This document shows positions 24,118 to 40,975 of a stretch of DNA of 64,000 nucleotides, piece by piece. The first letter of the stretch is position 1. Every line of letters starts with the position of its first letter. A program made the position numbers and the translations under genes. Origin of the DNA: Candidatus Melainabacteria bacterium (GTDB taxonomy: Bacteria > Cyanobacteriota > Vampirovibrionia > 2-02-FULL-35-15); the NCBI GenBank assembly GCA_016193285.1, contig JACPSL010000025.1, positions 58,523 to 122,522 on the forward strand, given 5' to 3'. The notes beneath the pieces are model-generated. The model searched no databases. It worked only from the letters and a program-made list of their open reading frames with translations, and was not told the origin of the DNA.

Positions 24118-24197
24118 ATTTAACCTGCCTTTAAAGATATTCAAGCTTAATTTAAACATTTTATCAAATGCTAATTTGGGGTATAATAAAGTTAACC

Positions 24198-24386
24198 ATG
24201 AGTTCAAAACAAAAAAGCAAAAAAGAGAAAGAAGAAGACTGGATTTATGATCCAATTGTTGTTAAGAATGTACTTCGTGCCAAAAAGGAAGTAGATGAAA
24301 TTTTAAAAAAGGGTGGTCACTTAACTACTATGGAGGAATTGCTAGAGAAGTTTCATAAGGAAGATGCAAAGAAAATTCAAGATTAG
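24198..24386 (+). CDS. putative antitoxin (small protein overlapping the start of a RelE/ParE-like gene)
   Basis: A 62-aa charged protein whose stop overlaps the ATG of the downstream toxin-like reading frame, the typical TA arrangement. Confidence 0.4.
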   Translation: MSSKQKSKKEKEEDWIYDPIVVKNVLRAKKEVDEILKKGGHLTTMEELLEKFHKEDAKKIQD

Positions 24387-24651
24387 CTATTCTCCAAAGG
24401 CTGAAAGAGATTTAGAGAGATTTCGTAAAAGATATTGAAAATCATATAAAGATTTTATGTCATTATTACCTGCTTTGGAGTTGGATCCCTATGGTATTGG
24501 TAAACCTTTAAAAGGTGAATTTAAGGGATTGTATTCACTTCATTTTGGAAGAAAGCCTGAATGTCGTGCAATGTATGAAATAAAAAAGGATCTGGTAATA
24601 GTTGTTATATTAAGAATCGGAACTAGAGAAAATTTTTATGATATCTTTTAA
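24364..24651 (+). pseudogene. RelE/ParE-family toxin disrupted by two frameshifts
   Basis: Three consecutive frames give MQRKFKISYSPKAERDLERFRK / DIENHIKIL / LLPALELDPYGIGKPLKGE...YEIKKDLVIVVILRIGTRENFY. Together these reconstruct a canonical RelE-like protein. Confidence 0.55.
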
Positions 24652-26778: not shown

Positions 26779-26790
26779 TTGATTGTGTAA

Positions 26791-26837
26791 AAAAAACAAA
26801 AAGATTTTTTGAGGTGAGGTGAGAGTGATGGGGTAGG
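26791..26837. repeat. island repeat family A, copy 1 (AAAGATTTTTTGAGGTGAGG + G-rich tail)
   Basis: One of five imperfect copies at 26791, 27551, 28251, 29076 and 29549. Each lies immediately 3' of a minus-strand cassette. Confidence 0.7.
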
Positions 26838-26856: not shown

Positions 26857-27054
26857 TTAAGATGCTTTTCTAACTATTTTTATTTCTGAGACATATTTTG
26901 ATTTATCAGGGTCTTTTTTTGCTATTTTACGCAGGTAATTCATGATCCTTGTCGGATTGTTTCCAAAACGAGCAGTAAGTGCTCTACCTCTGGCTCTAGT
27001 TTCTTCAACTACGGGGTCAAACCATTTAGCATTACTTTTTTTTCTTTTTTTCAT
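26857..27054 (-). CDS. small basic protein, partner of the upstream PIN protein (family shared with 28304..28459 and 39791..39988)
   Basis: A conserved D-P-[LV]-x-E...Y core shared by three paralogs, each directly downstream of a PIN gene. Confidence 0.5.
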   Translation of the reverse strand: MKKRKKSNAKWFDPVVEETRARGRALTARFGNNPTRIMNYLRKIAKKDPDKSKYVSEIKIVRKAS

Positions 27055-27063
27055 ACACTTTAA

Positions 27064-27525
27064 TTATACCCTGAGTTCAAGTGGTGTAACAATTTCAGGG
27101 AGAAATAGACCTAATGTTGCATTTATATTTTTCATATGTATTTTCTTGTTTACGTTTGCTAGATGGGCACAGTTCCAGGTTAATAAGATATCAATTTTGT
27201 AAACTGAAGCAAATGCTAGATGCAATGCATCTCTCGTATCTTTTAATGGCATTAATTTATTCTTAAGATAGATTTCAATAATCTTATCAACTTGTTCTAT
27301 AGGATTTAATATATGGATGCCTTTTGTTAGCTTTATTGCATATATTTGATTTGGGAAATTTCCTCCTTTTAGTTCTTCTAAGACAAAATTGCTTATATAT
27401 AAATCATAAAAATGTTTTTCATTGTTCCACCATTCTCTTGTTCTCTTAATATGAACATCAAGCTCTGATCTTTCATCAACATAATAACTAAAAATAGTTG
27501 TATCTAAATAAACACTTTGTTTCAT
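27064..27525 (-). CDS. PIN-domain protein (VapC-like toxin), paralog 1
   Basis: N-terminal V-Y-L-D-T-T acidic motif and C-terminal DALHLAFASV...LLTWNCAHL region shared with the other two PIN paralogs. Confidence 0.65.
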   Translation of the reverse strand: MKQSVYLDTTIFSYYVDERSELDVHIKRTREWWNNEKHFYDLYISNFVLEELKGGNFPNQIYAIKLTKGIHILNPIEQVDKIIEIYLKNKLMPLKDTRDALHLAFASVYKIDILLTWNCAHLANVNKKIHMKNINATLGLFLPEIVTPLELRV

Positions 27526-27550
27526 AATACATTTAATTTTAGCACTCTAC

Positions 27551-27608
27551 AAACACGAGAAAGATTTTTTGAGGTGGGGTGGGAGTGGTGGGGGGTAATG
27601 GGGTGAGG
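27551..27608. repeat. island repeat family A, copy 2 (longest G-tract: GGTGGGGTGGGAGTGGTGGGGGGTAATGGGGTGAGG)
   Basis: Seen directly. Confidence 0.7.
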
Positions 27609-27623
27609 TAATTAAATAGCAAC

Positions 27624-27866
27624 CTATGCAACTCGAAAGTTTTTCCCAATCGGAATAAAATTATCTGTGTGTCCTTTTTCCAACTTATTCTTAATCTCTT
27701 CAAATTTACAAACTTGTTCGGGTGTGAAAAGAATCTCTCCACACATTTCACAAACTTCTACATAAACATCAATTAATGCTGAATTGTTTCCACCATTAAT
27801 AGTGTGGATGATCTTTTTTATTTCAATTCTATCTGAACCACACGATGGGCATTTAAAGTTTTGCAT
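27624..27866 (-). CDS. YgiT-type (MqsA-like) zinc-finger protein, putative antitoxin
   Basis: CPSCGS...(20 aa)...CEMCGE zinc ribbon in an 80-aa protein. Its start lies 2 nt after the stop of the upstream toxin-like ORF. Confidence 0.6.
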   Translation of the reverse strand: MQNFKCPSCGSDRIEIKKIIHTINGGNNSALIDVYVEVCEMCGEILFTPEQVCKFEEIKNKLEKGHTDNFIPIGKNFRVA

Positions 27867-27868
27867 TG

Positions 27869-28186
27869 TTATTTCCTTTTCTTATATTCTACCCATTTCT
27901 TTGGATTAGGCCTATAAACAGTAATTAGAATGGCTATTTGAGATCCCTTATCCAGTGCCCATACAGTATGAATAGGCTCATTTTTATTATTAAAACTTAA
28001 TACTAAACACGACGGCAGCGGCTTACTACTAGGATAGTCTTCTATTACTTCAGCATGCTTAATAGATGTTTTTATTTCAAGGATCGAAATATTGTCAGCA
28101 TCTTTTTCTTGAAGAGCATGTTGAGTAATTCTAAAATTATCTGATTGAATGGCTGACTTTAAGTCTTCAAAATTTATGAATGTATT
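27869..28186 (-). CDS. DUF4258-like toxin-family ORF with no ATG start (possible pseudogene or non-canonical start)
   Basis: Stop-to-stop ORF that is not in the supplied track. Its translation ...RITQHALQEKDADNISILEIKTSIKHAEVIEDYPSSKPLPSCLVLSFNNKNEPIHTVWALDKGSQIAILITVYRPNPKKW matches the HA...R.I...YP.DKP.PS.L.......P.H.V.A......I.ITVY.P....W pattern of this toxin family. Confidence 0.45.
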   Translation of the reverse strand, partial: NTFINFEDLKSAIQSDNFRITQHALQEKDADNISILEIKTSIKHAEVIEDYPSSKPLPSCLVLSFNNKNEPIHTVWALDKGSQIAILITVYRPNPKKWVEYKKRK

Positions 28187-28250
28187 CTACAACAAGTGAT
28201 CTAATATACATGTAACCAAAGGTTACATAAGTATTTTAATTAACATTACA

Positions 28251-28298
28251 AAAACACAAGAAAGATTTTTTGAGGTGAGGAGTAAGGGGATAGAGTGA
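28251..28298. repeat. island repeat family A, copy 3
   Basis: Seen directly. Confidence 0.7.
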
Positions 28299-28303
28299 CT
28301 TAC

Positions 28304-28459
28304 TTATGCTGTTTTCTTGCTCACTTGTTTTTTAAGTTTTGCTGCTTCTTCTCTAATATATTTTACATATTCTGAAGCAGACATCTTTTTTGTCTCTTCG
28401 TAGATTTTTCTTCTTATTTTATGTAATTCTTCAAGCGGATCTTTTTCTTTTCTTTTCAT
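28304..28459 (-). CDS. small basic protein partner of PIN paralog 2
   Basis: MKRKEKDPLEELHKIRRKIYEE... aligns with the other two partners. Using the internal Met (not the tracked start at 28507) removes the 38-nt overlap with the PIN gene. Confidence 0.5.
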   Translation of the reverse strand: MKRKEKDPLEELHKIRRKIYEETKKMSASEYVKYIREEAAKLKKQVSKKTA

Positions 28460-28469
28460 ATGATTCTCC

Positions 28470-28988
28470 TTATTGTGAAACAAATTCTCTTGGTGAAACA
28501 ATTTCAATTAAGCTATAACCTTCTCGTAAATTAATTACGTGAACACCTTTAATAGTTCTAGCTCGTACGATATGTTGAAAGTTCCATGAGACAATAAAAT
28601 CACAATGATTTAAACTAGCAACAGCAATGTGAATAGCATCATTGATAGCATTAGAAGGCATCAATCCTTCATTAGTATAAATCTTAGCTAGATTATATGA
28701 TTCATTGCTTGGAGTTAGAATCTCAGGTTGATATTTTTCAACCAATCTCAATAACTGTTTACGCCTTGTGTCATAAGCTCTATTAATTTCAACTTCAACA
28801 ACTTCTGATATACAAAGTAAATGACTTTTACTTTTACCATAAACTTCTAAAAAATCTATAGTTAGCCTGTACTCACTTCTATTGGTTTCAAGAGCTAAAT
28901 TCCATATAGAGGTATCAATATAAAGCTTTGTTTTCTTAATCATTATAATGATTATAACAGCTAGTTGTTCTGTCATGATATTCAACAA
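28470..28988 (-). CDS. PIN-domain protein (VapC-like toxin), paralog 2
   Basis: KLYIDTSIWN...DAIHIAVASL...SWNFQHIV...IEIVSPREF is close to paralog 3. The likely true start is MIKKTKLY at 28943, behind a TGnTATAAT box. Confidence 0.65.
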   Translation of the reverse strand: MLNIMTEQLAVIIIIMIKKTKLYIDTSIWNLALETNRSEYRLTIDFLEVYGKSKSHLLCISEVVEVEINRAYDTRRKQLLRLVEKYQPEILTPSNESYNLAKIYTNEGLMPSNAINDAIHIAVASLNHCDFIVSWNFQHIVRARTIKGVHVINLREGYSLIEIVSPREFVSQ

Positions 28989-29075
28989 AAAATATTTCTA
29001 AAGAAAGGAGCAAAAGAAGATCTTCTTGAACTAAATTACTACTTCGCTAGAAACTAGATGATAGAAGAACTTTCT

Positions 29076-29118
29076 AAAAAACACAAAAGATTTTTTGAGG
29101 TGAGGAGTAGGGGGATAA
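29076..29118. repeat. island repeat family A, copy 4
   Basis: Seen directly. Confidence 0.7.
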
Positions 29119-29427
29119 CACATCATCAGAGCGACACATCAAATATTAAGTCTTCATTCAAATTTTATAGATGTGACTTTTGGTTGCGTGAATTTTTAAT
29201 TCAATATGATATATTTACGAGCATGATCACTGAAGATAAAAAATATATCTCAAGTGTTTTAAAGAATTTAGGGTTCGCATTTCTAACACCTTTGGGCTCA
29301 GTTACTTTTCAATATCTGGTTCTAAAAAAGAGCTTCTTTAGTGGACACACGGCCTTATGTTCATTAGCATCATTTGTTGGTTGGTGATTATTGTTTTTAG
29401 GGTATAATTTTGTTAAGGAGAAGAAAA

Positions 29428-29547
29428 ATGATAAGTAACCTTGAAGGTTTAATAGCAGTTGGCTCAATATTAATTCCTGCAATACTTTTAACTGTATACT
29501 TCATATACGATCAAAATAAAACTAAAAAAAGAGAAAAGAAAAGTTAA
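29428..29547 (+). CDS. possible 39-aa single-TM peptide (MISNLEGLIAVGSILIPAILLTVYFIYDQNKTKKREKKS)
   Basis: Not in the supplied track (below its size cut-off). TATAAT at 29403 and AAGGAG at 29415 precede the ATG at 29428. One TM helix plus a basic tail. Confidence 0.3.
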   Translation: MISNLEGLIAVGSILIPAILLTVYFIYDQNKTKKREKKS

Positions 29548-29548
29548 A

Positions 29549-29590
29549 GAAAAACACAAAAAGATTTTTTTGGTGAGGGATGGTGGAAGG
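29549..29590. repeat. island repeat family A, copy 5
   Basis: Seen directly, immediately 3' of the five-gene minus operon. Confidence 0.7.
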
Positions 29591-29603
29591 TTATTACTAA
29601 ATT

Positions 29604-30386
29604 TTATTCTACAATAATTATTGTTTTCCCAGATGGTGAGAACTTAAATTCAATACCTTCATTTTTTCTTGACAACACTTTTCTAAGAGCAATGTCAAAG
29701 TCTTGCCAATTTTGAACATTGTTTTGCATATCATTTGTAAAATCTATTTGCTCGGCAGACTCAAATGAATAACCTAGAATGTCGTTATCCACTAGTACAC
29801 GCCTTGGTATAACTCTAATATTTCCATTTTTACTTGTAGTAACTGCATAGTGTAGGTTCCCTCTCCATGTGCCTTCTCGATGAATAATCGTAAATATTGT
29901 TTTACCTGGCTCTGATTCACCTTTTAGTTCTCTTAGTTTAGGAGTTAGCTTTCTAAGTGAGCTTACTATATCAGATGTATCAAGACCATTAATTTGATAT
30001 TCTTTTAAAGCTAAAGCAGCAGCTATCAATTCTAATACGCTTGGATCAAGGGGCGCTCTTTCATGTGTGGCGTTCTCGCAGCTTTTTAAAAATGACCAAA
30101 ATTCCTCATACCTACCATACCTATCAGCTGCGTCCTGAAAACTAATATGAATTCTTTCAAGTTCTTTTTTTGCTTCGTTTAAGTTAGTTATTTGTTCTTT
30201 TGTTTCACTAGTTGTTTCTGCTCTACTCTTGAATTTGTCAGTTGTTGACTTGCTGAATATTGTATATGAGTCAGGAGTTGGCTTTAATATTCCTGATGGT
30301 TTTGGTTTCCCTTCTTCTTTTTTCTGTGCCTGCCCAACAGCTAGTGAGGGAAGCATGTTGTGTGTCATTAATGATACTGAATACAT
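29604..30386 (-). CDS. hypothetical protein (last gene of the caspase-like operon)
   Basis: A 260-aa ORF; no motif recognised. Confidence 0.5.
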   Translation of the reverse strand: MYSVSLMTHNMLPSLAVGQAQKKEEGKPKPSGILKPTPDSYTIFSKSTTDKFKSRAETTSETKEQITNLNEAKKELERIHISFQDAADRYGRYEEFWSFLKSCENATHERAPLDPSVLELIAAALALKEYQINGLDTSDIVSSLRKLTPKLRELKGESEPGKTIFTIIHREGTWRGNLHYAVTTSKNGNIRVIPRRVLVDNDILGYSFESAEQIDFTNDMQNNVQNWQDFDIALRKVLSRKNEGIEFKFSPSGKTIIIVE

Positions 30387-30480
30387 AAAAAATCAGCTCC
30401 TAGAAATACAATGCTTGTATGCAAATAAATTTGATAATGGTACAAAACTAACAGGTTCTTTAGTTCAAAAAACTGCACAT

Positions 30481-32274
30481 TTATGCAGCAATAATTTCTT
30501 CATTAATTGTTAATCTTTGATTCAATGGATTTAAATTGTTTATTAACTTAATCTTAACTGGTTTTTTATCGGGGGGTTGTTCTGTAGAGTATTGAATCAC
30601 TTTAGCGTTTTGTTTGTATTTGCTGTAATGTGCTAACTTTTTTACAGTGTGCATAGCATGAAAAATATTTCCAAAGGATGGATTTAAAGGCTCATTTCTT
30701 ATTCTCTGGTATTTTAAAAACTTATAATACCAGGATAAATAATAGTTAAATGCTGAAGATCTATCTTCACCATCAAACCCTTTCATGCTGTGATTAACGA
30801 CTAATGCTTCTTTTGCAGTTAAGGCAGCATATGACTCTCCATCTCCTGAAGAAGAAGTAATTATCGTCACATCTTTTACAGGAAGCTGCTTATTTCCAAT
30901 CTTAAAGTTTTGCAAGCAAGCAATTATTTTATCACCTTGAATTTCAGATCTACATGAGTCTGCAATTATAACAAACTTCATGCTCTTACAAAGTGGTCCA
31001 CCATTATCATCTAAGCTTGCAATTGCTTTTGCAATCTCTTCAGACGTAATATCACTGTCTGAAGCTTTTATACATCCATTCTTATCTCCATGCATATTAT
31101 AGTGAAATATGAAGGTTGTTTTACCACTAGCTTTTGCATTGTTTGCAGCTTTTATAAATCTATCTAAGATATTTTTTTTTGTAGCTGTTAAAGCTTTTGG
31201 TAAGGAACCATCTTTAACTTGTGGTAGTTCATCCCATATCCCACGGTTTTCTACACAAACAGTAAAGTCACTAATATTAAAATTTTCTTTGTAAGTCATT
31301 CCTATTTCAGCAAGGTCGTTTTCTATCTCAACTAATTCTCCAGGCACACTTGCTAAGAAACAAGCCGTACTCCCATCTTTTGGAATGTCAATTTTATAAA
31401 AATTCTCCCAGGATAATTGTTGTCCCTTAAAATTATTAGTTTCTAATTTTATTTTTTGTTTAATAAGTTCAATTAACTCATCTTCTGTTTTTATGTTACT
31501 TAATTCTAGACAACTTAATCCAATAAAAACAGGCTCACTATTTTTACTTGTAAAGTTATTAGCTAAGATGAATTCAAACACTCTGTGTATATTTCCATCA
31601 CCATTAGATATTCCAATACATTCAAGAGGAATACCAGTATCTTCCTTAACCTTATTTAAAACTGCATCCAGATTAAAATTCTTATCATTTTCTTGAAGGA
31701 TTTCAGTGAGTGTTTTATTTAAGAATACTTGGGTTTCCTTAAATGTAACTGTTTTTTGAAGGTTATTCAAAATAGCTTTTAGTTTTTTTGCAGTAGAAAT
31801 TACTTCACTAGCATATGGTTCATATTCATATAAACTTTTTGCTTGGTTTTCAAGGATAAAGTTAGGATCTATCAGGGCTAATTTAAATGCTGCTTCTTTT
31901 CTTATTTCTCTTGCTTTTTTGCTGCCAAGAGTTTCTTCTAATTTTTTGTAGTCGGTAAATATTAATCTTGGATTTTTTTCAACAGATGCATCTATACCTT
32001 CTTTAGGTATTTTTTCTAATTCTTCTTGATTCTTCTTATTTATTTCAACAGCGTTTGTAAAAAAAACAGATTTTATGAATCTTCCAAGTAATATAAATGG
32101 TGAAAAAAGTATTTTTAGCATTTTTACGAAAGTGCTACTTTTATCTTCAAGTACTTGAACTGATTGATACTGAGAGTTATTGGATTTAGCAAGTAAGGAG
32201 TTATTATGAGAACTAACATGTTGCAGATTATTCTTGTCCTCAACTTGATTTCTAAATCTAAAGCTAATTTCCAT
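30481..32274 (-). CDS. caspase/metacaspase-like (clan CD, C14-type) cysteine protease-domain protein
   Basis: The C-terminal half has FIFHYNMHGDKNG ... (46 aa) ... FVIIADSCRSE. This is a His-Gly / Asp-Ser-Cys dyad with the spacing and flanking beta-strand pattern of metacaspases (FHYSGHG ... DSCHSG). Confidence 0.6.
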   Translation of the reverse strand: MEISFRFRNQVEDKNNLQHVSSHNNSLLAKSNNSQYQSVQVLEDKSSTFVKMLKILFSPFILLGRFIKSVFFTNAVEINKKNQEELEKIPKEGIDASVEKNPRLIFTDYKKLEETLGSKKAREIRKEAAFKLALIDPNFILENQAKSLYEYEPYASEVISTAKKLKAILNNLQKTVTFKETQVFLNKTLTEILQENDKNFNLDAVLNKVKEDTGIPLECIGISNGDGNIHRVFEFILANNFTSKNSEPVFIGLSCLELSNIKTEDELIELIKQKIKLETNNFKGQQLSWENFYKIDIPKDGSTACFLASVPGELVEIENDLAEIGMTYKENFNISDFTVCVENRGIWDELPQVKDGSLPKALTATKKNILDRFIKAANNAKASGKTTFIFHYNMHGDKNGCIKASDSDITSEEIAKAIASLDDNGGPLCKSMKFVIIADSCRSEIQGDKIIACLQNFKIGNKQLPVKDVTIITSSSGDGESYAALTAKEALVVNHSMKGFDGEDRSSAFNYYLSWYYKFLKYQRIRNEPLNPSFGNIFHAMHTVKKLAHYSKYKQNAKVIQYSTEQPPDKKPVKIKLINNLNPLNQRLTINEEIIAA

Positions 32275-32352
32275 AATTAAAAAGATATGTTTAGGATTTT
32301 TATCCTAATATTTACAAAGTAAAAAGAAATTAATTTTTGATAATTTTTATGA

Positions 32353-33378
32353 TTAAGTGTTTTGAGTAACGTAATTCCAGGTAGGTGTAAATATCTTATC
32401 CTTTATAGCATTGCCAGCAAATTGATTTAAAAGTCCACCAGCACAAATTCCAGTGCATATTGTAAGCCCAATTGCTACCCAACCTACAGGGCTTATTAAA
32501 GCAAATGCTGCAGCTATTCCAAGTCCACACAAAGCTATATTTGTCCAAGCTTCACTAGTTCGCCCACCGTGAAATTTATTAACAATGCCAGCTATTTCAA
32601 AACCTGCTCCAAGTACTGACGCAATACCACCTAACCATTTAAGAGTACCTGCAAAAAATCCTTTCCATGAAGCTCCTGTTCCATTGATCGCTCGTCCTAC
32701 CAATGTTCTAGTCGACCATAACTTTTTATCATAAGATGCCAATTTAAATGCTTTATCAGCACCCATATATTTAGCTCTTTCGAAACCACTTGCAATTCCA
32801 CCTAGTTGAGCCATATTTACAGGATGAGTAAAAGCATCTCTTGCATTAGTACCTTTAAGAGTTTGTATAATGTCGTACTTATCTAATAAGAAATCTGGAT
32901 CTTTTATATGATCTTGTATGAGTTTGCATATTTTTAAGAAGTCTTCAGCATTAGATATTTTAAAGTTGCTTGCTAGTTCTTCTAACTTTTCTTTATTATA
33001 TTTTTTGTCTTCATCAAGGTTATCATAATTATCCTGTTCAGTATTTTTTCCTAACTGATCAATTATGTTACCTATTTGAATTACATCGAGCTTTCCACCT
33101 GTTACAGTATAAAAATGTTCTGCAAGAGATCTCATTTCTCTTTTATCTCGTTCTATTTGTCCATTAAGTTCTAAGAGTCCTTGATTATCTCTGGGTATTC
33201 CAATAAGAGCTGACTGAATAGCACTTTCTCTTGCAGTATAGCTTAAGCCTTTTTTGTTTTTATATGCTTCTCTTAGTTTTGCTAATTTAGGTTCAACATC
33301 ACTACCACCATCTCCAAGAGCTGTACTTGTTCTTCTACTACTACCAGTACGTGGTACAAGTATTTTAAGTATTATCAT
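32353..33378 (-). CDS. glycine-zipper membrane protein (soluble N-domain plus C-terminal 2-3 TM Gly/Ala-zipper helices)
   Basis: C-terminus LGGIASVLGAGFEIAG...RTSEAWTNIALCGLGIAAAFALISPVGWVAIGLTICTGICAGG...KDKIF; paralogous to the C-terminal domain of 37321..38121. Confidence 0.55.
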   Translation of the reverse strand: MIILKILVPRTGSSRRTSTALGDGGSDVEPKLAKLREAYKNKKGLSYTARESAIQSALIGIPRDNQGLLELNGQIERDKREMRSLAEHFYTVTGGKLDVIQIGNIIDQLGKNTEQDNYDNLDEDKKYNKEKLEELASNFKISNAEDFLKICKLIQDHIKDPDFLLDKYDIIQTLKGTNARDAFTHPVNMAQLGGIASGFERAKYMGADKAFKLASYDKKLWSTRTLVGRAINGTGASWKGFFAGTLKWLGGIASVLGAGFEIAGIVNKFHGGRTSEAWTNIALCGLGIAAAFALISPVGWVAIGLTICTGICAGGLLNQFAGNAIKDKIFTPTWNYVTQNT

Positions 33379-33502
33379 AATATTCTCCTAAAATAATATT
33401 TTGTTATTCACTACATACAAAGCAATATGTTGTAGTTAGTTGATAGGAGATTATTGAAAGGGAGCAAGATTTATTGTTAACAAACTTATAACTAATTTGT
33501 TC

Positions 33503-35800
33503 TTATTTTTCTTTAGGATCAAATCGTCTGTCATTCACAGATATAGGTATGTTTAAATATTTATTATGTTCATTTTGAGGGACGCCAGCAGCAACAAGTG
33601 TGTTACGGTCAAATTTTTGTGTTGGATGGAGTAATTCGTGTTGTTCTTGATCGTCCTGATCCTTCTTTGTTGGAACAAGTCTTTCAATACTATCTTTTAC
33701 TAGATATGCCCAGGAGTAAGATGCTGCCCTATTTAATGATTCTGTTGGCAAAGGATAAACATGAGGTCTTCCAGCAAAAAGTTTTAATTCGTCTGTTTCT
33801 CCTTTTTCTTTACGGTGTGCTATTAATATCTTTATACAGTCTAAAAGCCTAAGAGCTGTTTTATTGTCAGGATTATTTTCATCTTTTATATTTTCATCAT
33901 TAATTTTGCTTTCATCTGGTGCTTTAAGATCTACTTTTAATGTTTCTGAAATATCTTTTAAAAGACAATCAGTTTTAACTACATATTCTTTAAAATGACT
34001 TGGTTTGTTGTTTGTATCAAGAACAGCTATTAGAATAGTACACCAATCATCTCTGTAATAAACTTTTACTCTTAAATTATTATGGTTAAATGCTGGCAAT
34101 GATTTACCTAGTACTGATCCTATTTTCTCTTCTAGTTTTTTTTCATCTGTTGTTGTTTCGTAGATATTCTCTGGCAATTTAATTGAACCTACAAATTCTT
34201 TGTCTAAATCTTTTCTTTTTTTTCTACTTAACGCAGAATCAAACGAACTTCTTAATTCCTCTCCATCTTTACCTTGAATCTCCCTTATATAGCCACTTTT
34301 TAAATCTGCCAAATCTCCTGCAAAAATAACTTTTCTACTTCTCTTCTCTTGTATTTTAAATGCTTCAAGAATATCTTGATTTGGGTCAGTAGTAGCTTTT
34401 ATAAAAACTACATGCTCAATAAATAATTTTCTTAGCTTTTCTGTTGTATCATCATTGTCATTGCTCTTTAATTTCGATTTTTCATCCTTATCTATTATTT
34501 TGGCCTTCTCTAGCTCATCTAGAAATTTATCTTTAGTAAATGTAATTGAATAAGCTTGGTAGTTTCCTGCTGCATCTTTTTTCCAGATTAGCGATTCACA
34601 GCATAGAGTCTCACTTGGAGTACCTTCACTAGTCTTAAAAGTGGAAAGTGTAATTCTGTATTCATCTTCATTAATAAACGGCGGCCTTCTATTTGGTGGA
34701 ATATTTGTAGTCGAAGATTTTGGGTAACCTTTTAAATAATCATTAACTACTGGATTATTTTTTTCAATCTTAACTTGTGAAATAGATTCTGGTCTATAGC
34801 TAGAATCTGTTGATTTTCTGTATAGATCTTCGTATGTTGTACTTTCTATAAATTTTGCACCATCTTGAGCTAGTTGTTCTTGATCATCACTAGCTACATA
34901 TGTTTTATACAATAGCTCTGTAAACCTCTGATGTCCATTTTTAAATTCAACTTCACTACCAGGAGGGCGATAACTTCTGCCTGTTGGGCTTAAAAATATT
35001 ACATTTTTAACCTTGTCCTGCTCAGATGAGTTGACAGCTAAATCCTCAAATTCCCTAGTCCCCCACAACGCAATTTTTATTTTTTTATCAGGATCAGTTG
35101 ATCCAAAATATTCAATTGTCTGTTTAGCTTTAGCTAATGGAATAATAATTTGTCTGTTTTCTTTTTTACTAGAAAAGTTTTCATCTCCTACTATGTAGTG
35201 TATATCCTTTCTGTCTACTATCCACGCTGTTACAGTCTGTAGTGTTTTACCTTCTCTATCTTTTACTTTATAAGTACCAAGACTTATAACATTTGAATCT
35301 TCTTCATGTGGAGTTTCTTTTTTGTATCGATTTATGTGTGCTAATAGATCTCTTGGGGTGTCTGTTTTTTCAAGCCTTACAATTATTTCAGGTTTAGGAG
35401 GAGAAGGTCTTGTATCTGATGGTGGAGCTGGTTTTGGAGTAGTGCTACCAGTAGAAGAGTCCTCTATCAGCTTTCCATCTTTTGACAAATTTAATAACTC
35501 TAGTACATTTTTCTTTTGCTCATTGCTTAGAGATGATTCTCCTAAATGTCTAATGTAATCAAAATAAAGATTTTGTTTTGAACTAAATTCATCTTTTGTA
35601 ATAAGAATTTGGTTAAAGTTACTAAGATGACCAATACTTAAAGCAGCTTTTAATTCTTCTGTGGTAAGTAGTCCATCTTTTTTTCCAACTACCTTACCAG
35701 AGCGATCCAGTATTCCAATTGAAAGATCAGTTTTTAATAGCTGTTGTATTTTTTCTATTCTTTGTTGTATAGAAGGAGTTGTTGTAGCAGGTGGATCCAT
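33503..35800 (-). CDS. large hypothetical protein with a Pro/Thr-rich linker
   Basis: A 765-aa ORF with a low-complexity linker (STGSTTPKPAPPSDTRPSPPKPE); no catalytic motif recognised. Confidence 0.5.
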   Translation of the reverse strand: MDPPATTTPSIQQRIEKIQQLLKTDLSIGILDRSGKVVGKKDGLLTTEELKAALSIGHLSNFNQILITKDEFSSKQNLYFDYIRHLGESSLSNEQKKNVLELLNLSKDGKLIEDSSTGSTTPKPAPPSDTRPSPPKPEIIVRLEKTDTPRDLLAHINRYKKETPHEEDSNVISLGTYKVKDREGKTLQTVTAWIVDRKDIHYIVGDENFSSKKENRQIIIPLAKAKQTIEYFGSTDPDKKIKIALWGTREFEDLAVNSSEQDKVKNVIFLSPTGRSYRPPGSEVEFKNGHQRFTELLYKTYVASDDQEQLAQDGAKFIESTTYEDLYRKSTDSSYRPESISQVKIEKNNPVVNDYLKGYPKSSTTNIPPNRRPPFINEDEYRITLSTFKTSEGTPSETLCCESLIWKKDAAGNYQAYSITFTKDKFLDELEKAKIIDKDEKSKLKSNDNDDTTEKLRKLFIEHVVFIKATTDPNQDILEAFKIQEKRSRKVIFAGDLADLKSGYIREIQGKDGEELRSSFDSALSRKKRKDLDKEFVGSIKLPENIYETTTDEKKLEEKIGSVLGKSLPAFNHNNLRVKVYYRDDWCTILIAVLDTNNKPSHFKEYVVKTDCLLKDISETLKVDLKAPDESKINDENIKDENNPDNKTALRLLDCIKILIAHRKEKGETDELKLFAGRPHVYPLPTESLNRAASYSWAYLVKDSIERLVPTKKDQDDQEQHELLHPTQKFDRNTLVAAGVPQNEHNKYLNIPISVNDRRFDPKEK

Positions 35801-35805
35801 AGTTA

Positions 35806-36933
35806 TTAATTTGTAAGTGGAACAAAATTTCTTACTCCTTTACCTTCTGTATGTTCAACTTCAGCAATACTTCCATCAATAAGATTAGTAATTGTTTTAT
35901 CACTTGCACTAATACTTAAAACTAAGTCTTGCATAAGATTCATACCTCTTTCCCTAAGTGAAATTAATTTATTATAAAAATCTTCTCCAAATCTTTCTAT
36001 GACAGAATTTTTACCGGCAGGGCGTTGAAGGTAGTCATCTTGTCCAAGAAATATAGCTTTTTTGTTTTTAATTTCGTTTGCATTTTCTCCTTTTAAAGTG
36101 AGAGCTGAAACAAAGTCAATTAATTTTTGACCTCTTAAAAATACATAGCCTTCATCTTTTTCTAATTTATCTAAGTAGTCTTGTTTATATGTTCCTCTAA
36201 ATGCAAGTCTTGTATTACGGGATGAGTCTTGGTCTGAGTACCATATTATAAAAGCAGGTTTATTTGTACCTTTTCTAATATAGTGAACTATTTTTACCTT
36301 ATTCCCAGCATCTACTGATTTGACATCTGATGGTTTAGTCCCTTCTGCAATATCAGTATCTATTGCTCTTTTTATATCATCAGGTATAGTTCCTGCTGGT
36401 GTTGCACTTGTTGATGTTACAGTATCTGCTGGTTTTATTTTCTTAATTAGATCTTCTAATTTTGTAAGTATTGCTTTTTGATCACCAGTTAAATCAGTAG
36501 CTGCTTTAAGCTTGTCAATTAAGTCAAGAAGTTTTTCTTCAGCTTCTTTATTCTTAAAACTAAAACTACCGTCCGGATTTCTAACAATTAATCTTTGTGA
36601 AATTAGTATGACTACTGGTTCCACAAAGCCCGGGAAAATTTTGCTTAAGAATTCTTTAGCTTGATTTATTTCCTCTGGAGTATAATTAAAGTCATCTGGC
36701 TCGAGAGTTTCATTTGCACCTCTTTTTGCAATTTTTTTAACTCTTTCTTGATCTACTTCATTAGTACCTCCTGCTTTGATAAAGCGATCAACATTCTTGT
36801 TCAGTTGATCATACAGTGCTCCTTGGGCAGGATTAGTCTTTTTTTCTTCTTCAATCTTATTTTGAAATTCTTTCTTACTAGTAGGTTTTCCTGCGTTAAA
36901 TAATTTACTGATTAAATCTAATGTTAAACCCAT
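35806..36933 (-). CDS. hypothetical protein (first gene of the minus-strand operon)
   Basis: A 375-aa ORF, 5 nt upstream of the next gene. Confidence 0.5.
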   Translation of the reverse strand: MGLTLDLISKLFNAGKPTSKKEFQNKIEEEKKTNPAQGALYDQLNKNVDRFIKAGGTNEVDQERVKKIAKRGANETLEPDDFNYTPEEINQAKEFLSKIFPGFVEPVVILISQRLIVRNPDGSFSFKNKEAEEKLLDLIDKLKAATDLTGDQKAILTKLEDLIKKIKPADTVTSTSATPAGTIPDDIKRAIDTDIAEGTKPSDVKSVDAGNKVKIVHYIRKGTNKPAFIIWYSDQDSSRNTRLAFRGTYKQDYLDKLEKDEGYVFLRGQKLIDFVSALTLKGENANEIKNKKAIFLGQDDYLQRPAGKNSVIERFGEDFYNKLISLRERGMNLMQDLVLSISASDKTITNLIDGSIAEVEHTEGKGVRNFVPLTN

Positions 36934-36986
36934 GACTTTCCCTCCAAATATTTATACATTTATAGAAAGGAAAATATTAATTAAAA

Positions 36987-37028
36987 TTGACAGCTAAAAA
37001 AATATTAAACTTTGTAACTTGCTGTCAA
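36987..37028. promoter_or_regulatory. inverted repeat TTGACAGC-N26-GCTGTCAA in the divergent intergenic region
   Basis: Seen directly, ~55-95 nt upstream of the minus-strand operon start. Both arms are TTGACA -35-like hexamers facing outward. Confidence 0.35.
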
Positions 37029-37320
37029 TATTCTGTTTGCACTTACTTTGTAGTATCTGAGTAAGTAGAACCTCAAGTTCTATTTATTCTTAATACAGTT
37101 CTTACTTTGAATCTTAGTAGTTTTCTATTAAGGTCTTGAAGTAAACTTATTATTAAATCAAATATTTAAGCATAATATTTCTTTAGCTTAATAAAGCTAA
37201 ATGCAATTATAGATTGGTTTTGATAAGCTTATATGTTTAAGTATTTGATCTAAGGTTACTAGTTAATTAAGGTTAAGAAGTGATTAAGTAAAATTAAGTA
37301 AGAAGTAAAATAACAAAACA

Positions 37321-38121
37321 ATGTTTATATTAATAGCAGTTGTTGGAAAAGTTTTAACGATAGCAGCAGGAACTCCACTTGTAGCTTTTAAGAAAGCATT
37401 TAATGTTTTGACTGCAAGTAAAAGTGATATTCCTAAGTTATATTTAGAGGCTGAGCAAATGGCAGGCAAAGTGGCTATTGAAAAAGGATGGTTTGAATAT
37501 TTAGGTCATCTAATAGAAAGATTAGGTTATGGTATAAGAGCACAATTAGGTTTATATGGAATTGATAAGAATGGAGCTATTAAACATTTGTCTGAACTTT
37601 CAAGTGAATTTAAAGAGAAAGGTGGTTTACTGTCTGCTCTATCTAAAGGTTATCCTAAATTTGGAGAAGCTATGAAAGCTGCTACTACAGCTATTCCTGA
37701 GCTAGGAGGAAAAGCAATATTAGGTTTTAGAGGATTGGGAGCTATGGGTTTAGGTGCTCTTGGTGCTTTAGGAGTAGGTATATTTTCAATTGGTCTTATA
37801 ATTAGTTCTTATAGAGCAATAAATGCAAAAAGTAAAACGGAATGGGCAGGACCTGTAAAAACTACTACGTGGGATAAATTAACTACTTTGGCAGGACTAG
37901 CAGGTACTGCAGGTGCTGCAGCTTTATTTATTCCAGGAGCAAGTATAGCTTCGTTTGTCTTAATACCAGCTGCAGCAATAATGGCTGCTACTGGATTTGT
38001 CATGGATAAGATTTATAGTGGAACTACTTTTTATCATATGCCTGATCAGCTACCATATCCATTGAACGATGTAGCAAGATCAGTATTTAACGTAGATAGG
38101 CATATCCCTAGAATGCAATAA
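37321..38121 (+). CDS. glycine-zipper membrane protein, paralog of the 32353..33378 C-terminus
   Basis: GLGAMGLGALGALGVGIFSIGLII...KSKTEWAG...LAGLAGTAGAAALFIPGASIASFVLIPAAAIMAATGFVMDKIY. Confidence 0.55.
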   Translation: MFILIAVVGKVLTIAAGTPLVAFKKAFNVLTASKSDIPKLYLEAEQMAGKVAIEKGWFEYLGHLIERLGYGIRAQLGLYGIDKNGAIKHLSELSSEFKEKGGLLSALSKGYPKFGEAMKAATTAIPELGGKAILGFRGLGAMGLGALGALGVGIFSIGLIISSYRAINAKSKTEWAGPVKTTTWDKLTTLAGLAGTAGAAALFIPGASIASFVLIPAAAIMAATGFVMDKIYSGTTFYHMPDQLPYPLNDVARSVFNVDRHIPRMQ

Positions 38122-38155
38122 GTTTTGCTCTTGACATTAAAGTTAAAAATGTGTT

Positions 38156-38668
38156 ATGGTTGGATTAAAACCATATTTAAGATTTAAAAAAAGGTTGATA
38201 ATAAAAATGGATGTAGTTAGTTTATATGGCTCATATGTACAAGAAATAGTAATTCCAAAGTATCAGATTAATCAAAAACTTCTGAAAATGGTAGCTGCTA
38301 ATAAGTATGAAGAAATTGCTTCTCGTGAACTACCTAAATTGCATCGTGAAGCAAACAAACTTTCATTAGACTTAAAAGAAGCAGGAGGAGATCCAAAAAA
38401 AGCAAAAAAAGTAAAAAAACAACTAAGAGCCTTAGAAGTAAGAGCAAATAAACTAAATGAAATGTTTGCAGTTGTCAGTGACGATGAATTAGCAGCTGCT
38501 AAAGTAAATCCATCTAGAAAACAAGTTGAACAAATTATAAATGCTACTGTTGAATTAAATCAGCCTACTAAAAGTGAAACCCCACAAGAAAGTGTAAAAT
38601 CCCAAGTTGGTAAAAAATTAGTACGGGACAGCATGAATAATATTAAAAACAGTCAACAAGCTGCCTAA
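38156..38668 (+). CDS. hypothetical coiled-coil, lysine-rich protein
   Basis: ORF directly downstream of the Gly-zipper gene; the true start may be the internal MDVVSLY. Confidence 0.4.
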   Translation: MVGLKPYLRFKKRLIIKMDVVSLYGSYVQEIVIPKYQINQKLLKMVAANKYEEIASRELPKLHREANKLSLDLKEAGGDPKKAKKVKKQLRALEVRANKLNEMFAVVSDDELAAAKVNPSRKQVEQIINATVELNQPTKSETPQESVKSQVGKKLVRDSMNNIKNSQQAA

Positions 38669-38689
38669 ATTAGTTAGTTAGTTGAATGT

Positions 38690-38959
38690 TTAACTTCTTA
38701 AGAGACTAATTATACGTTCTAGAATTTTAAATCTATTTTCAATAAGCATGGATATAAGATTAACTCCTGCAGTTAAATATTTCATCTGAATTGTTAATGT
38801 GCCAATAGCTTTCTGTGCAATTGCTTTAGCTGTTGCGCTTGCAGTTGGATCCACTATAATCGCGTTATTCTGTGCAAGTTGTCCTTCAATTGTATTAGCT
38901 TCAGTCGTTACCCTTCCTAATTCACTACCTAAATCTAATCCGCCTACTGCTCCTGGCAT
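38690..38959 (-). CDS. hypothetical small Ala/Gly-rich protein
   Basis: An 89-aa ORF convergent with 38156..38668. Confidence 0.3.
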   Translation of the reverse strand: MPGAVGGLDLGSELGRVTTEANTIEGQLAQNNAIIVDPTASATAKAIAQKAIGTLTIQMKYLTAGVNLISMLIENRFKILERIISLLRS

Positions 38960-39096
38960 TGCTTTTCTCCTTTAATATAAGGTTCTTAAATAGTTGCTTA
39001 CCTTCAAGTTATACAAATATATTTGCTAAAAAAATTTGATAGCAAAATTTAAAACTTAATACTCTTACTTAAAAACAAGTTAAAGAATTAAAAATA

Positions 39097-39669
39097 TTAC
39101 ACTTCTAATTTACGAGTAATATGGAAATATGAATTTTCAATTTGGGTTATCATTTCATTAAGTGTTTTATTGTCAAACTTTAAATCATTTAGTTTAATAA
39201 TCCCTTTAAATATTCCTATTTTATTTAAGTCAATTCCTTTTTCAATAATTTTTTGGGTGGGTATATTATCAGAGATAAAAAAGGAAAATTTATCATATTC
39301 AATATATAAAGGATTAATTTTTTCAAGAATGTTTTCAATGAACAAGATTATAGGAAAGTTATTACTTATACATGCATAAGATTGTGCTTTAGAACCAACT
39401 GAAAAAGCAATGTTAATTTTTCTGTCAGTAAGATACCTGTTTAAAAATACAGATCTGCAAATCGTTGAAAACTCTTCAAATAATCCAAATATTGATATGA
39501 TCCATCCAATAATTTTTGCCTCTAATTTATTTTCTTCCAGAACTTTTTTTATTTCGCTCGTGTTTTGAGCAGTAATAGTTACATCATGACCTCTTGACTT
39601 TAGTTCACTACTTAGTGCCTTTATAAAAGGAATGTGTTTAGGGTTATCAATGTCAAGCCAGATGTGCAT
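39097..39669 (-). CDS. DUF354-like protein fragment (N-terminal ~190 aa of a ~340-aa family; likely truncated)
   Basis: N-terminus MHIWLDIDNPKHIPFIKAL...LKSRGHDVTITA matches the conserved DUF354 start (MKIWIDI.N.PHV.F). A family B promoter/stub repeat sits in front of it. Confidence 0.4.
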   Translation of the reverse strand: MHIWLDIDNPKHIPFIKALSSELKSRGHDVTITAQNTSEIKKVLEENKLEAKIIGWIISIFGLFEEFSTICRSVFLNRYLTDRKINIAFSVGSKAQSYACISNNFPIILFIENILEKINPLYIEYDKFSFFISDNIPTQKIIEKGIDLNKIGIFKGIIKLNDLKFDNKTLNEMITQIENSYFHITRKLEV

Positions 39670-39727
39670 TTTTTACTTTATATTGTTTTTTTTTCATGAC
39701 TTTGACTTTATTATACCCAGTTTTTGC
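39670..39727. repeat. island repeat family B, copy 1 (promoter plus MKKKQYKVK antitoxin stub)
   Basis: The minus strand reads CTGGGTATAAT-AAAGTCAAAGTC-ATGAAAAAAAAACAATATAAAGTAAAA. The stub runs out of frame into the DUF354 ORF. Confidence 0.65.
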
Positions 39728-39790
39728 CTTGCTTTTTTATCCGCTGCTCCATAATGCTTGACAGTTTTGCTGAGTGAATCAAAGCTTAAG

Positions 39791-39988
39791 TTAACCTGCT
39801 CTTTTAAACTCACTAAAAAGTTTGTCAATATTTTTAACAGGTCTAACTTGTTTTCTTAATTTTTCGAATTCTCTTGCACCTTTACTTATATAAGCAAAGT
39901 ATTCTTTTGCATTCATGTTTTTGGTTTTTTTATAGTTTTCTCCACGGATTTTATGTAATTCTTTTAACGGATCATCATTTTTATTCAT
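39791..39988 (-). CDS. small basic protein partner of PIN paralog 3
   Basis: MNKNDDPLKELHKIRGENYKK...YFAYISKGAREF; family shared with 26857..27054 and 28304..28459. Confidence 0.5.
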   Translation of the reverse strand: MNKNDDPLKELHKIRGENYKKTKNMNAKEYFAYISKGAREFEKLRKQVRPVKNIDKLFSEFKRAG

Positions 39989-40015
39989 TGTATTTACCCC
40001 CTTATTTATTAATAT

Positions 40016-40501
40016 TTATTTTCCCAAGAATTGTCTTGGTGAAACTAATTCTATTAATGCATAACCTTCTCGTAGATTAATTATGTGTACTCCTTTGACA
40101 ACCTTTGCTTTGACTATATGCTTAAAGTTCCATGAAACAAGAAAGTCGCATTTGATTAATGATGCTATTGCAATATGCATAGCATCATCTCTATATTTAG
40201 CTGGTATTAATTTTTCACTAATGTAGGTATTTGCTAAGTTAAGTGTTTCTTCTTTATCAGGTTGAATAACTTCTGGGCTAAATGAATCAATTAATCTTGC
40301 AAGTTCATTTTTTCTTTTAGCACTTGCCCTATTCATCTCATCTTCTACAAGGTCTGAGATTAGTACTGTATAATTACTTCTCTTGTTTCTAAGCATCTTA
40401 AAAAAATCCCATGTTACTAAACAATCTGCTCTTTCTGTTTCGAGAGCAAAATTCCAGACTGAAGTATCAATATAAAGTTTTAGTGGTTTCCCCATTTTCA
40501 A
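40016..40501 (-). CDS. PIN-domain protein (VapC-like toxin), paralog 3
   Basis: LKLYIDTSVWN...DAMHIAIASL...SWNFKHIV...IELVSPRQF. Confidence 0.65.
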   Translation of the reverse strand: MKMGKPLKLYIDTSVWNFALETERADCLVTWDFFKMLRNKRSNYTVLISDLVEDEMNRASAKRKNELARLIDSFSPEVIQPDKEETLNLANTYISEKLIPAKYRDDAMHIAIASLIKCDFLVSWNFKHIVKAKVVKGVHIINLREGYALIELVSPRQFLGK

Positions 40502-40545
40502 TTTTTACTTTATATTGCTTTTTTTTCATGACCTTGACTTTGCTA
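40494..40545. repeat. island repeat family B, copy 2 (promoter plus 13-codon MKKKQYKVKIENG stub directly before the PIN start)
   Basis: Seen directly. Confidence 0.65.
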
Positions 40546-40661
40546 TCCTAAAGTATCTTAATTATATCCTCGGGGTAGATTTAAGTACAGAAGCAGGCTT
40601 TAACTCAAAGCCCATATTTACTTGCAAGAAATGTTTATCCATGGTCAATATTTCCTTAATT

Positions 40662-40934
40662 TTAAATTCTTGCATAACGACCATTGAAGACAAATCTACA
40701 AAAGAAATCCTTATAAACTACAGAATCTATTAATTCAGGGGTTAGTTCCTTATAATCTACTTCTGCACTTATACACCCTATTAATTCTTTAAGTAAGGCT
40801 TTATCTTCAGGATCCTCAAAATTTTCCTCTTCAAGAAAAATTATTATTCCTTCCTTGAAATTACTTAGATCTAAAGGTTCTAAAGGTTTTATTTCTCCAT
40901 TTTCAATTTTTACTTTATACTGTTTTTTTTTCAT
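40662..40934 (-). CDS. DUF104-type (KVKIENGEIKPLEPLDL) antitoxin-family protein
   Basis: The N-terminal consensus is typical of small antitoxins paired with PIN toxins. Confidence 0.55.
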   Translation of the reverse strand: MKKKQYKVKIENGEIKPLEPLDLSNFKEGIIIFLEEENFEDPEDKALLKELIGCISAEVDYKELTPELIDSVVYKDFFCRFVFNGRYARI

Positions 40935-40975
40935 GACTTTGATTTTATTATACCCAGTTTTTGCTTATACTTGGT
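40894..40975. repeat. island repeat family B, copy 3 (the intact promoter and 5' end of the DUF104 antitoxin gene)
   Basis: Seen directly. Confidence 0.65.

Follow-up and report, generated by a model that had tools for sequence, protein, structure and literature searches.

VapC-like PIN genes followed by genes for small basic proteins: candidate toxin-first toxin–antitoxin modules in a Candidatus Melainabacteria bacterium and in other bacterial phyla

Three modules, each consisting of a gene encoding a PIN-domain protein and a small open reading frame (ORF) encoding a basic protein, are present in the window, i.e., the whole 64,000-nt stretch of Candidatus Melainabacteria DNA analysed here. 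A check of the window ORFs confirmed all six genes (three PIN and three small), all of which are located on the minus strand. The first module contains PIN1 (27064–27525; 153 aa), a divergent member of a VapC-like PIN family, and small1 (26857–27054; 65 aa, pI 10.9), which occupies the place of the partner gene and shows only marginal homology to the partner family. The second module contains PIN2 (28470–28943), also a VapC-like PIN gene, and small2 (28304–28459; 51 aa from ATG), encoding a basic, predicted helical partner; the third contains the VapC-like gene PIN3 (40016–40495) and small3 (39791–39988), encoding a basic partner of 65 aa. As the sequence-only reading of this DNA had described, a small ORF thus follows each PIN gene on the same strand, at distances of 9 nt (small1), 10 nt (small2), and 27 nt (small3) from the PIN stop codon, and the sequence motifs quoted there were found in the PIN proteins. 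The longest ORFs of PIN2 (28470–28988) and PIN3 (40016–40501) start with TTG, at 28988 and 40501, respectively; based on homology, the PIN2 start is likely the ATG at 28943 (MIKKTKLYIDTS, 157 aa), and PIN3 likely starts at the ATG at 40495 (MGKPLKLYIDTS, 159 aa), which yields a protein equal in length to an orthologue (P0011). The sequence GGAG precedes small2 and GGGGG precedes small3, and three assemblies from this organism have the small1 ORF annotated as a gene. A candidate internal promoter for small1 (TTGTTA-18-TATAAT; 27092–27063) was rejected, since promoter-like sites (13) showed no excess over shuffled sequence (12.3).

By sequence comparison, PIN1, PIN2, and PIN3 are assigned to one large family (4135 clusters). 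A PIN profile of this family, built without window sequences, matched only these three among the 1081 stop-to-stop ORFs of the window, with scores of 203 bits for both PIN2 and PIN3 and 81 bits for PIN1. PIN2 and PIN3 share 52% identity, and PIN1 presented 29–33% identity (E-values of 1e-20 to 1e-22) to the PIN proteins of three loci (L071, L014, and L003). The Pfam PIN profile (PF01850) matched PIN1 (31.0 bits) and PIN2 (26.4 bits) above its cut-off of 23.6 bits and PIN3 (15.9 bits) below it; all 16 family members scanned matched this profile at E-values of up to 1. The AlphaFold2 model of PIN3 (mean pLDDT of 92.7) has a VapC-type PIN fold, and its best Foldseek matches in the PDB were the VapC chains of M. 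tuberculosis VapBC11, Salmonella VapBC, and the F plasmid (probability 1.00; TM-scores of 0.53–0.69); solved VapCs show a sequence identity of only 12–16% to the PIN proteins, and the PIN family profile found no relative among PDB sequences. Among 63 PIN sequences, D10, E53, and D104 are invariant; together with the VapC fold, these residues make the PIN look competent, which favors the toxin–antitoxin reading. After strand 4, an invariant Asn123, with His126 downstream, replaces the fourth acidic residue; PIN1 has kept all four residues (Asp, Glu, Asp, and Asn). The invariant Asn is a difference from VapBC systems and a point against the toxin–antitoxin reading. A tblastn search of 50,697 phage records with PIN3 yielded no match.

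The small proteins of the window are all basic (pI 9.9–10.9), and the sequence-only reading had placed them in one family. This holds for small2 and small3, which share 47% identity and matched a partner-family profile built without window sequences (E-values of 8.7e-14 and 9.9e-14, respectively), but not for small1, which lacks the core motif quoted for the family. Against the same profile, small1 scored 2.9 bits, no more than its own shuffled versions can reach (95th percentile 4.2 bits; 99th percentile 6.3 bits); against a broader profile, it scored 6.7 bits, above the 99th percentile (5.1 bits) and below the maximum (10.5 bits) of 2000 shuffles. We thus do not treat small1 as a significant homologue, and assign it to the family by its position, its size, its charge, and an alignment that is colinear but weak; this lack of significant similarity to the partner family counts against the toxin–antitoxin interpretation. 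The partner family comprises at least 2334 clusters at 50% identity. Its members are named "hypothetical" in the sources, and a "hypothetical protein" from a Candidatus Melainabacteria MAG matches small3 with 100% identity.

Searches of the small proteins against Pfam, a check that had been proposed along with the sequence-only reading, as well as NCBIfam and the PADLOC models of known anti-phage defence systems matched no family; searches against PHROGs gave chance-level matches only, and the partner-family profile found no relative among PDB sequences. The AlphaFold2 model of small3 shows three helices (pLDDT of 85.4), and the partner of 45–70 aa is predicted to form a basic helical hairpin, for which no fold match was found. 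None of the ribbon-helix-helix (RHH), AbrB, Phd/YefM, or HTH DNA-binding families in Pfam and NCBIfam was detected in 55 partner sequences. This bears on one alternative, i.e., that the small protein is a divergent RHH antitoxin of the VapB/CopG type that has moved downstream, making each module an ordinary VapBC operon with reversed gene order. In many members, two helices are indeed joined by a turn resembling G-x-[ST], a feature linked to RHH proteins, and one partner encoded in Leptospira (WP_000044296.1) has been labelled an RHH antitoxin (PMC12457778). However, no RHH profile matched the partner sequences, even with WP_000044296.1 scanned to an E-value of 10, and no strand-helix-helix fold was found; we therefore set this identity aside and consider a displaced VapB distinctly improbable.

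The pairing itself was assessed in a gene-neighbourhood sample of 80 PIN-seeded loci from many phyla, picked via PIN motifs, 76 of which were assessable. A profile-confirmed small ORF was located directly downstream of the PIN gene, on the same strand, at 66 of the 76; these account for 66 of the 68 profile matches found among 3374 small ORFs in the PIN-seeded loci. The nine remaining unfused loci have a small ORF at this position that is divergent, and at one locus (L039) the PIN and the small protein form a single in-frame fused ORF, although an error in assembly could account for this one case. Tandem-duplicated partners were also seen, still located after a PIN gene; the fusion and the tandem partners are compatible with physical binding of the partner to a PIN dimer. 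When look-ups were instead seeded with the small protein, all five cases with upstream DNA had a gene of 152–159 aa directly upstream, overlapping by 8–20 nt, and three of the five were confirmed by BLASTP as family PINs (E-values of 4e-22 to 3e-28). Co-occurrence of the homologues in other genomes, on which the sequence-only reading had staked its proposal, is thus seen at essentially every assessable locus. The two genes are also tightly coupled, with the small ORF overlapping the PIN stop codon in 63 of 68 profile matches (usually by 8–20 nt and most commonly by 14, 11, 17, or 8 nt). Pairwise identities of PINs and of their partners were correlated (Mantel r = 0.81; maximum of 999 permutations, 0.29), with r = 0.41 for pairs with a PIN identity below 50%. 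PIN and partner thus appear, from their sequences, to be inherited or to co-evolve as a unit, which is a point in favor of the toxin–antitoxin reading.

Four loci (L029, L042, L050, and L070) contained an interrupted PIN gene together with an intact small gene, while an intact PIN gene lacking the small ORF was found at none of the assessable loci. Loss of the PIN gene with retention of the small gene at decaying loci is the order expected for a toxin and its antidote rather than for an enzyme and its helper. This asymmetry involves four loci only, in a sample picked via PIN motifs. Under a different explanation, the small protein would assist the PIN as a positive partner, i.e., an RNA-binding or specificity subunit that delivers substrate to it, and the pair would serve RNA processing or defence. 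The charges of the two proteins would suit such a role, with a median pI of 5.0 for the PIN, which is unusually acidic, and of 9.8 for the strongly basic partner, as would the absence of any known antitoxin or DNA-binding domain from the small protein, and translational coupling and one fusion would suit any obligate heterocomplex. Many antitoxins are acidic; the basic charge of the partner therefore counts against the toxin–antitoxin reading and would fit a helper that binds RNA just as well. The decay pattern argues against a positive partner, however, and so does a genomic setting (patchy spread, multiple copies, adjacency to toxin–antitoxin and rep genes) that is typical of addiction modules and not of housekeeping nucleases. 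Overall, we regard a positive partner as rather unlikely.

Regarding this setting, the module has a wide but patchy distribution, with representatives in Bacteroidota, Nitrospirota, Omnitrophota, Bacillota, Verrucomicrobiota, Planctomycetota, and Spirochaetota. Several copies may occur in one MAG (L046 and L050; L033 and L076), and the three window copies adjoin other toxin–antitoxin genes. On the Leptospira plasmids pLiSL47 and pLiSL20, a PIN/partner pair is located immediately 3′ of the replication-initiation (rep) gene. Multiple copies, toxin–antitoxin gene neighbors, patchy occurrence across phyla, and siting next to rep on plasmids are typical of selfish modules. A 17-nt core of the repeat flanking the cassettes gave only single matches per contig in a metagenome scan, consistent with chance.

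Two of the window modules have a same-strand gene upstream of the PIN gene, a DUF104/AF2212-like gene upstream of PIN3 (40662–40934) and a gene encoding a YgiT zinc-finger protein upstream of PIN1 (27624–27866), and a three-component arrangement, an idea raised in the sequence-only reading, would also require such a gene. PIN2 has no such upstream gene, however, and no upstream gene is conserved across the 80 loci; the three-component idea is therefore not supported. Moreover, orthologous pairs of PIN3 in other Melainabacteria are located after an HD-domain gene or after the genes for ribosomal proteins L11 and L1, without DUF104. Both upstream genes have partners of their own: the YgiT protein pairs with a DUF4258 toxin in a toxin-first cassette (27624–28186), and the DUF104 gene beside PIN3 belongs to a separate, decayed module with its own PIN remnant. 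We thus consider a role for a third gene extremely unlikely.

Taken with the conserved PIN-then-small order and a partner without any database match, the comparative evidence agrees with the other suggestion made from the sequence, namely a family of PIN proteins and antitoxins that has escaped annotation. Our preferred reading, to which we assign a probability of roughly 0.6, is that each module is a two-gene, toxin-first, type II-like toxin–antitoxin operon. Besides the conserved pairing, the tight coupling, and the absence of a conserved third gene, this reading is favored by the opposite charges of PIN and partner, their correlated divergence, the rep-adjacent pair on Leptospira plasmids, and the four loci in which only the PIN gene is broken. 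The first gene would encode an acidic VapC-like PIN nuclease, probably a Mg2+/Mn2+-dependent endoribonuclease, with catalysis predicted to involve Asp10, Glu53, and Asp104, and with the invariant Asn123 at the site where a fourth acidic residue is usual in VapCs. The second gene would encode the helical hairpin, translated in coupling with the PIN or right after it. We infer that the PIN is toxic through an RNA target and that the small protein neutralises it, with indirect support from coupling, correlated divergence, complementary charge, and the one fusion; the partner may bind the acidic PIN directly and block the active site, with a conserved Arg in helix 1 as a candidate to enter the acidic pocket, by analogy to the Arg residues of VapB and FitA. 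The pair would transfer between genomes as a unit and could serve as an addiction or stabilisation module. A point against this reading is that no DNA-binding domain is recognisable in the partner, so that the autoregulation usual for antitoxins would lack an explanation.

The proposed modules share their toxin fold with VapBC systems (e.g., M. tuberculosis VapBC11, Shigella and Salmonella VapBC, and FitAB), and likewise form small, patchy, multicopy two-gene operons that can be plasmid-borne. However, the gene order is reversed, with the conserved partner downstream and no conserved gene upstream, and the partner is a hairpin of 45–70 aa rather than a protein with an RHH, AbrB, Phd, or HTH domain. 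In contrast, HigBA, MqsRA, HicAB, and BrnTA resemble the PIN modules in having the toxin gene first, the antitoxin gene second, and close coupling between them, and the neighboring DUF4258/YgiT cassette has the same order; the toxins of these systems are unrelated, with RelE-like, HicA, or BrnT folds instead of PIN, and the small protein has none of the DNA-binding domains (HTH, RHH, or zinc-finger) seen in their antitoxins. Short, all-helical antitoxins that neutralise by toxin binding alone are represented by PaaA2 (paaR2-paaA2-parE2) and epsilon (omega-epsilon-zeta), where a third gene encodes a repressor; the PIN module has no conserved third gene, and no sequence or fold similarity to these antitoxins was found. 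In the NetFlax study, PIN/VapC-like toxins neutralised by small partners listed as "None known" are described from Bacteroidota and Balneolota, and the M. gotjawali pair PIN_D128:SpnP1_D153 (WP_096349837.1 and WP_157750404.1) was validated in E. coli (Ernits et al. 2023, PMC10440598). The D153:D128 pair and the other D128 pairs covered here are antitoxin-first ("AT"), and D128 is annotated as DUF4411/PIN_VapC (PMC10440598). In the present family, the PIN gene always comes first, and its PINs gave no DUF4411 match. NetFlax also includes toxin-first D59 pairs, for example with the M90 partner. No characterised PIN toxin–antitoxin system with a downstream antitoxin was found in the literature searched.

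Few toxin families are as abundant as the PIN/VapC toxins, many of which seem to be partnerless. If the toxin–antitoxin reading is correct, a conserved downstream partner would make one large group of "solo" PINs complete modules, annotation pipelines would gain a partner profile, and the PIN toxin–antitoxin repertoire would gain a toxin-first architecture; an antitoxin lacking a recognisable DNA-binding domain would also raise the question of how the operon is regulated. A broader proposition, which we regard as evenly balanced, is that the partner represents a large antitoxin family without recognisable relatives, spread over many phyla, that neutralises an acidic VapC-like PIN from a downstream, coupled gene and without a DNA-binding domain; a sizeable share of "solo" PINs would then belong to complete toxin-first modules, some of which may stabilise plasmids, as in pathogenic Leptospira. 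The rep-adjacent pair is found on plasmids of both L. interrogans and L. kirschneri and, if the module functions as proposed, would offer a direct test of plasmid stability in a pathogen.

The three modules, each a gene for a VapC-like PIN protein followed by a gene for a small basic protein (the partner), comprise six ORFs on the minus strand of a window that derives from a Candidatus Melainabacteria MAG and has a G+C content of ~30%: PIN1 (27064–27525) is followed by small1 (26857–27054), PIN2 (28470–28943; longest ORF to 28988) by small2 (28304–28459), and PIN3 (40016–40495; longest ORF to 40501) by small3 (39791–39988). Gaps of 9, 10, and 27 nt, respectively, separate the PIN stop codons from the small gene starts, in agreement with the toxin-first, same-strand order described in the sequence-only reading; GGAG precedes the small2 start and GGGGG the small3 start. 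The alignment of PIN1, PIN2, and PIN3 has 33 invariant columns, among which the PIN motifs quoted in that reading are present, and a PIN profile built from database relatives only picked exactly these three of the 1081 stop-to-stop ORFs in the window (203, 203, and 81 bits). The claim that the small proteins form one family held for small2 and small3, which are 47% identical and were both matched at ~1e-13 by a profile of the small proteins from which window sequences had been left out; small3 is also 100% identical to NCBI “hypothetical protein HYY52_05690”. The claim was not confirmed for small1, which scored 2.9 bits with the same profile (shuffles of its own sequence: 6.3 at the 99th percentile, maximum 12.1) and 6.7 bits with a broader profile (shuffles: 5.1 at the 99th percentile, maximum 10.5); its alignment to the family is colinear (K-FD-V ... 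Y-L-K-K) and not significant, and small1 is a partner by positional equivalence only.

Pfam PIN scores were weak (31, 26, and 16 bits for PIN1, PIN2, and PIN3; cut-off 23.6), and the PIN family comprises 4135 clusters at 90% identity (E up to 1e-3). A search by sequence profile found no PDB relative. AlphaFold2 modelled PIN3 with high confidence (pLDDT 92.7), and the PDB entries that match the model best are VapC toxins (VapC11, Salmonella VapC, and F-plasmid VapC; 12–16% identity). In PIN3 numbering, counted from MGKPL, residues D10, E53, and D104 are invariant in 63 family PINs, as are T11, S47, H107, W122, and N123; H126 is 98% conserved. N123 occupies the position of the usual VapC acidic residue after strand 4, a position described by Matelska et al. 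as “almost always invariant” (PMC5499597); N123 is a real departure from the VapC pattern.

The Pfam search suggested for the small proteins in the sequence-only reading matched no family; NCBIfam and PADLOC likewise gave no match, PHROG gave no meaningful match, and a profile search found no PDB relative. In the small3 model (pLDDT 85.4), two helices form a hairpin and a third follows (residues 7–22, 27–47, and 52–64). When 1.84 billion representatives were searched exhaustively with HMMER, 2334 clusters fell in the small family (E up to 1e-3); nearly all of the best 150 are stand-alone proteins of 45–90 aa, and a few (96–169 aa) carry a tandemly duplicated domain. Source databases name nearly all of the small proteins “hypothetical protein”, the sole exception being one JGI entry (PurS component).

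Gene neighbourhoods were surveyed at the best 80 of at least 567 tblastn-confirmed PIN loci, obtained by scanning a single genome from each GTDB species for a pattern; four of the 80 were not assessable because the DNA ends too near the PIN gene. An ORF of 45–70 aa lies immediately downstream of the PIN gene, on the same strand, in nearly all 80 loci. When all six frames were scanned with a small-protein profile built from sequences outside these loci, 68 of 3374 small ORFs matched, 66 of them directly after the PIN gene; nine of the 80 loci have a divergent small ORF at the same place. The core in the surveyed loci reads [FW]D.V...R.[IW][RK]...(8–10 residues)...[ML][ST]..E....[YF]. As 63 of the 68 matches overlap the PIN stop codon (most commonly by 14, 11, 17, or 8 nt), the arrangement indicates translational coupling of the small gene to the PIN gene. 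In a Lachnospiraceae MAG, the PIN and small protein are fused in frame (L039, 2998–3648), and at locus L027 two tandem small genes (3449–3628 and 3664–3846) follow one PIN gene. In the opposite direction, look-ups seeded with small proteins led to a 152–159 aa gene directly upstream (overlap 8–20 nt) in all five cases that had upstream DNA, and the three checked by BLASTP were family PINs; some single proteins (P0249, P0250, P0253, P0256, and P0271) contain two copies of the small domain, and P0253 was confirmed to follow a family PIN. In close Melainabacteria orthologues the same pair is located after an HD-domain gene or after the genes for ribosomal proteins L11 and L1; the pair thus relocates as a two-gene unit. 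The gene pair itself is real, widespread, and tightly conserved.

The three-component arrangement raised in the sequence-only reading was rejected, because no upstream gene is conserved, either in the 80 loci, where upstream neighbours are mutually unrelated and often on the opposite strand, or at the close Melainabacteria orthologues. PIN2 has no co-directional upstream gene. The protein upstream of PIN1, an 80-aa YgiT-type zinc-finger protein (27624–27866, minus strand; MqsA N-terminal-like, without the HTH half), was rejected as a third component since it belongs to a cassette with the preceding DUF4258 toxin-like ORF (27869–28186, minus strand; 73 bits); these two form a second kind of toxin-first module. 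The DUF4258 ORF has no ATG, GTG, or TTG upstream of its domain, and its start has possibly been lost or is non-canonical. The DUF104/AF2212-like gene (90 aa) upstream of PIN3 was rejected because it is followed by its own PIN-like remnant, a 43-aa ORF (40562–40934 for both, minus strand). On our own inspection this ORF (...ILTMDKHF...) resembles the C-terminal end of a classical VapC; the fragment had no Pfam match. DUF104 and the 43-aa ORF seem to be the decayed remains of an antitoxin-first PIN module adjoining the intact toxin-first PIN3 module.

Pairwise identities of PINs and partners are correlated (Mantel r = 0.81; maximum of 999 permutations, 0.29). Median pI is 5.0 for the PINs and 9.8 for the partners. 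At four loci (L029, L042, L050, and L070) a stop codon or frameshift breaks the PIN frame and the downstream small gene is intact; the reverse, an intact PIN without a small ORF, was seen in no assessable locus of the 80. In Leptospira, the pair lies directly downstream of a replication-initiation gene on L. interrogans pLiSL47 (L087, 1489–2134) and L. kirschneri pLiSL20 (L088, 1489–2116); the two genes overlap by 8 nt, PGAP names them “VapC family toxin” or “hypothetical” and then “hypothetical”, and the partners contain the family core. The window modules also lie among other toxin-antitoxin genes, namely DUF4258/YgiT, DUF104 with its PIN remnant, and a 64-aa ParE-like toxin preceded by a 72-aa ORF (24168–24651, plus strand; weak precomputed Pfam match). 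Together, the correlated identities, opposite charge, plasmid siting, asymmetric decay, and toxin-antitoxin neighbours favour reading the pair as a putative selfish, toxin-first toxin-antitoxin module, with the small proteins as an uncharacterised family of antitoxins that would bind and inhibit the PINs. Less probably, the small protein may be basic and RNA-binding in order to assist an acidic nuclease. The conserved pairing and the lack of a family match for the partner agree with the earlier suggestion of a PIN/antitoxin family not annotated as such.

In the toxin-antitoxin field, swapped partners and new antitoxins are to be expected; what is notable here is the family's size, its lack of annotation, the absence of a DNA-binding domain from the partner, and the occurrence on Leptospira plasmids. 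The modules share a VapC-like PIN toxin with VapBC, but differ in their reversed gene order and in having a partner without a DNA-binding domain. The same Leptospira proteins have been reported from a serovar Hardjo-specific chromosomal island of L. interrogans, with the partner labelled a ribbon-helix-helix antitoxin in one table (PMC12457778), a label that failed both a sequence test and a fold test (fold from a monomer model). NetFlax validated PIN toxins whose small antitoxins have no known domain (PMC10440598); the pairs legible in its supplement are antitoxin-first, with a toxin annotated DUF4411/PIN, and differ from the present family in both respects, although the present pair may still be identical to one validated there. 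In the literature searched, none of the characterised PIN toxin-antitoxin systems had its antitoxin downstream.

Two direct repeats accompany the modules. A 47-nt repeat (26785–26831, 27545–27591, 28246–28292, and 29071–29117), whose core CACCTCAAAAAATCTTT (minus strand) occurs in four exact copies versus 0.06 expected, flanks each of three toxin-first cassettes in a row (PIN2-small2, DUF4258-YgiT, and PIN1-small1). The repeat and cassettes look like a cassette array; no recombinase gene adjoins them, and when metagenomes were scanned for the core, no contig had more than a single match, consistent with chance. A 66-nt repeat (39662–39727, 40494–40559, and 40899–40964; 76–92% identity) contains a TATAAT-like box together with the opening ~14 codons of the DUF104 gene (MKKKQYKVKIENGE); its copies lie at the head of that gene, over the PIN3 start in a different frame, and at the head of a truncated DUF354 gene of which the first half is left (39097–39669, minus strand). 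Absence of this repeat from the orthologous PIN loci L212 and L214 points to local duplication or recombination flanking the PIN3-small3 cassette. Another mobile or defence-type gene, besides the DUF354 and ParE-like genes, encodes an AbiEii-like nucleotidyltransferase (6825–7322, plus strand). The block between the toxin-antitoxin clusters (29604–38959) could be a variable island; seven of its eight genes (89–765 aa) have no Pfam match, and it includes a caspase-domain (Peptidase_C14) protein of 597 aa (30481–32274).
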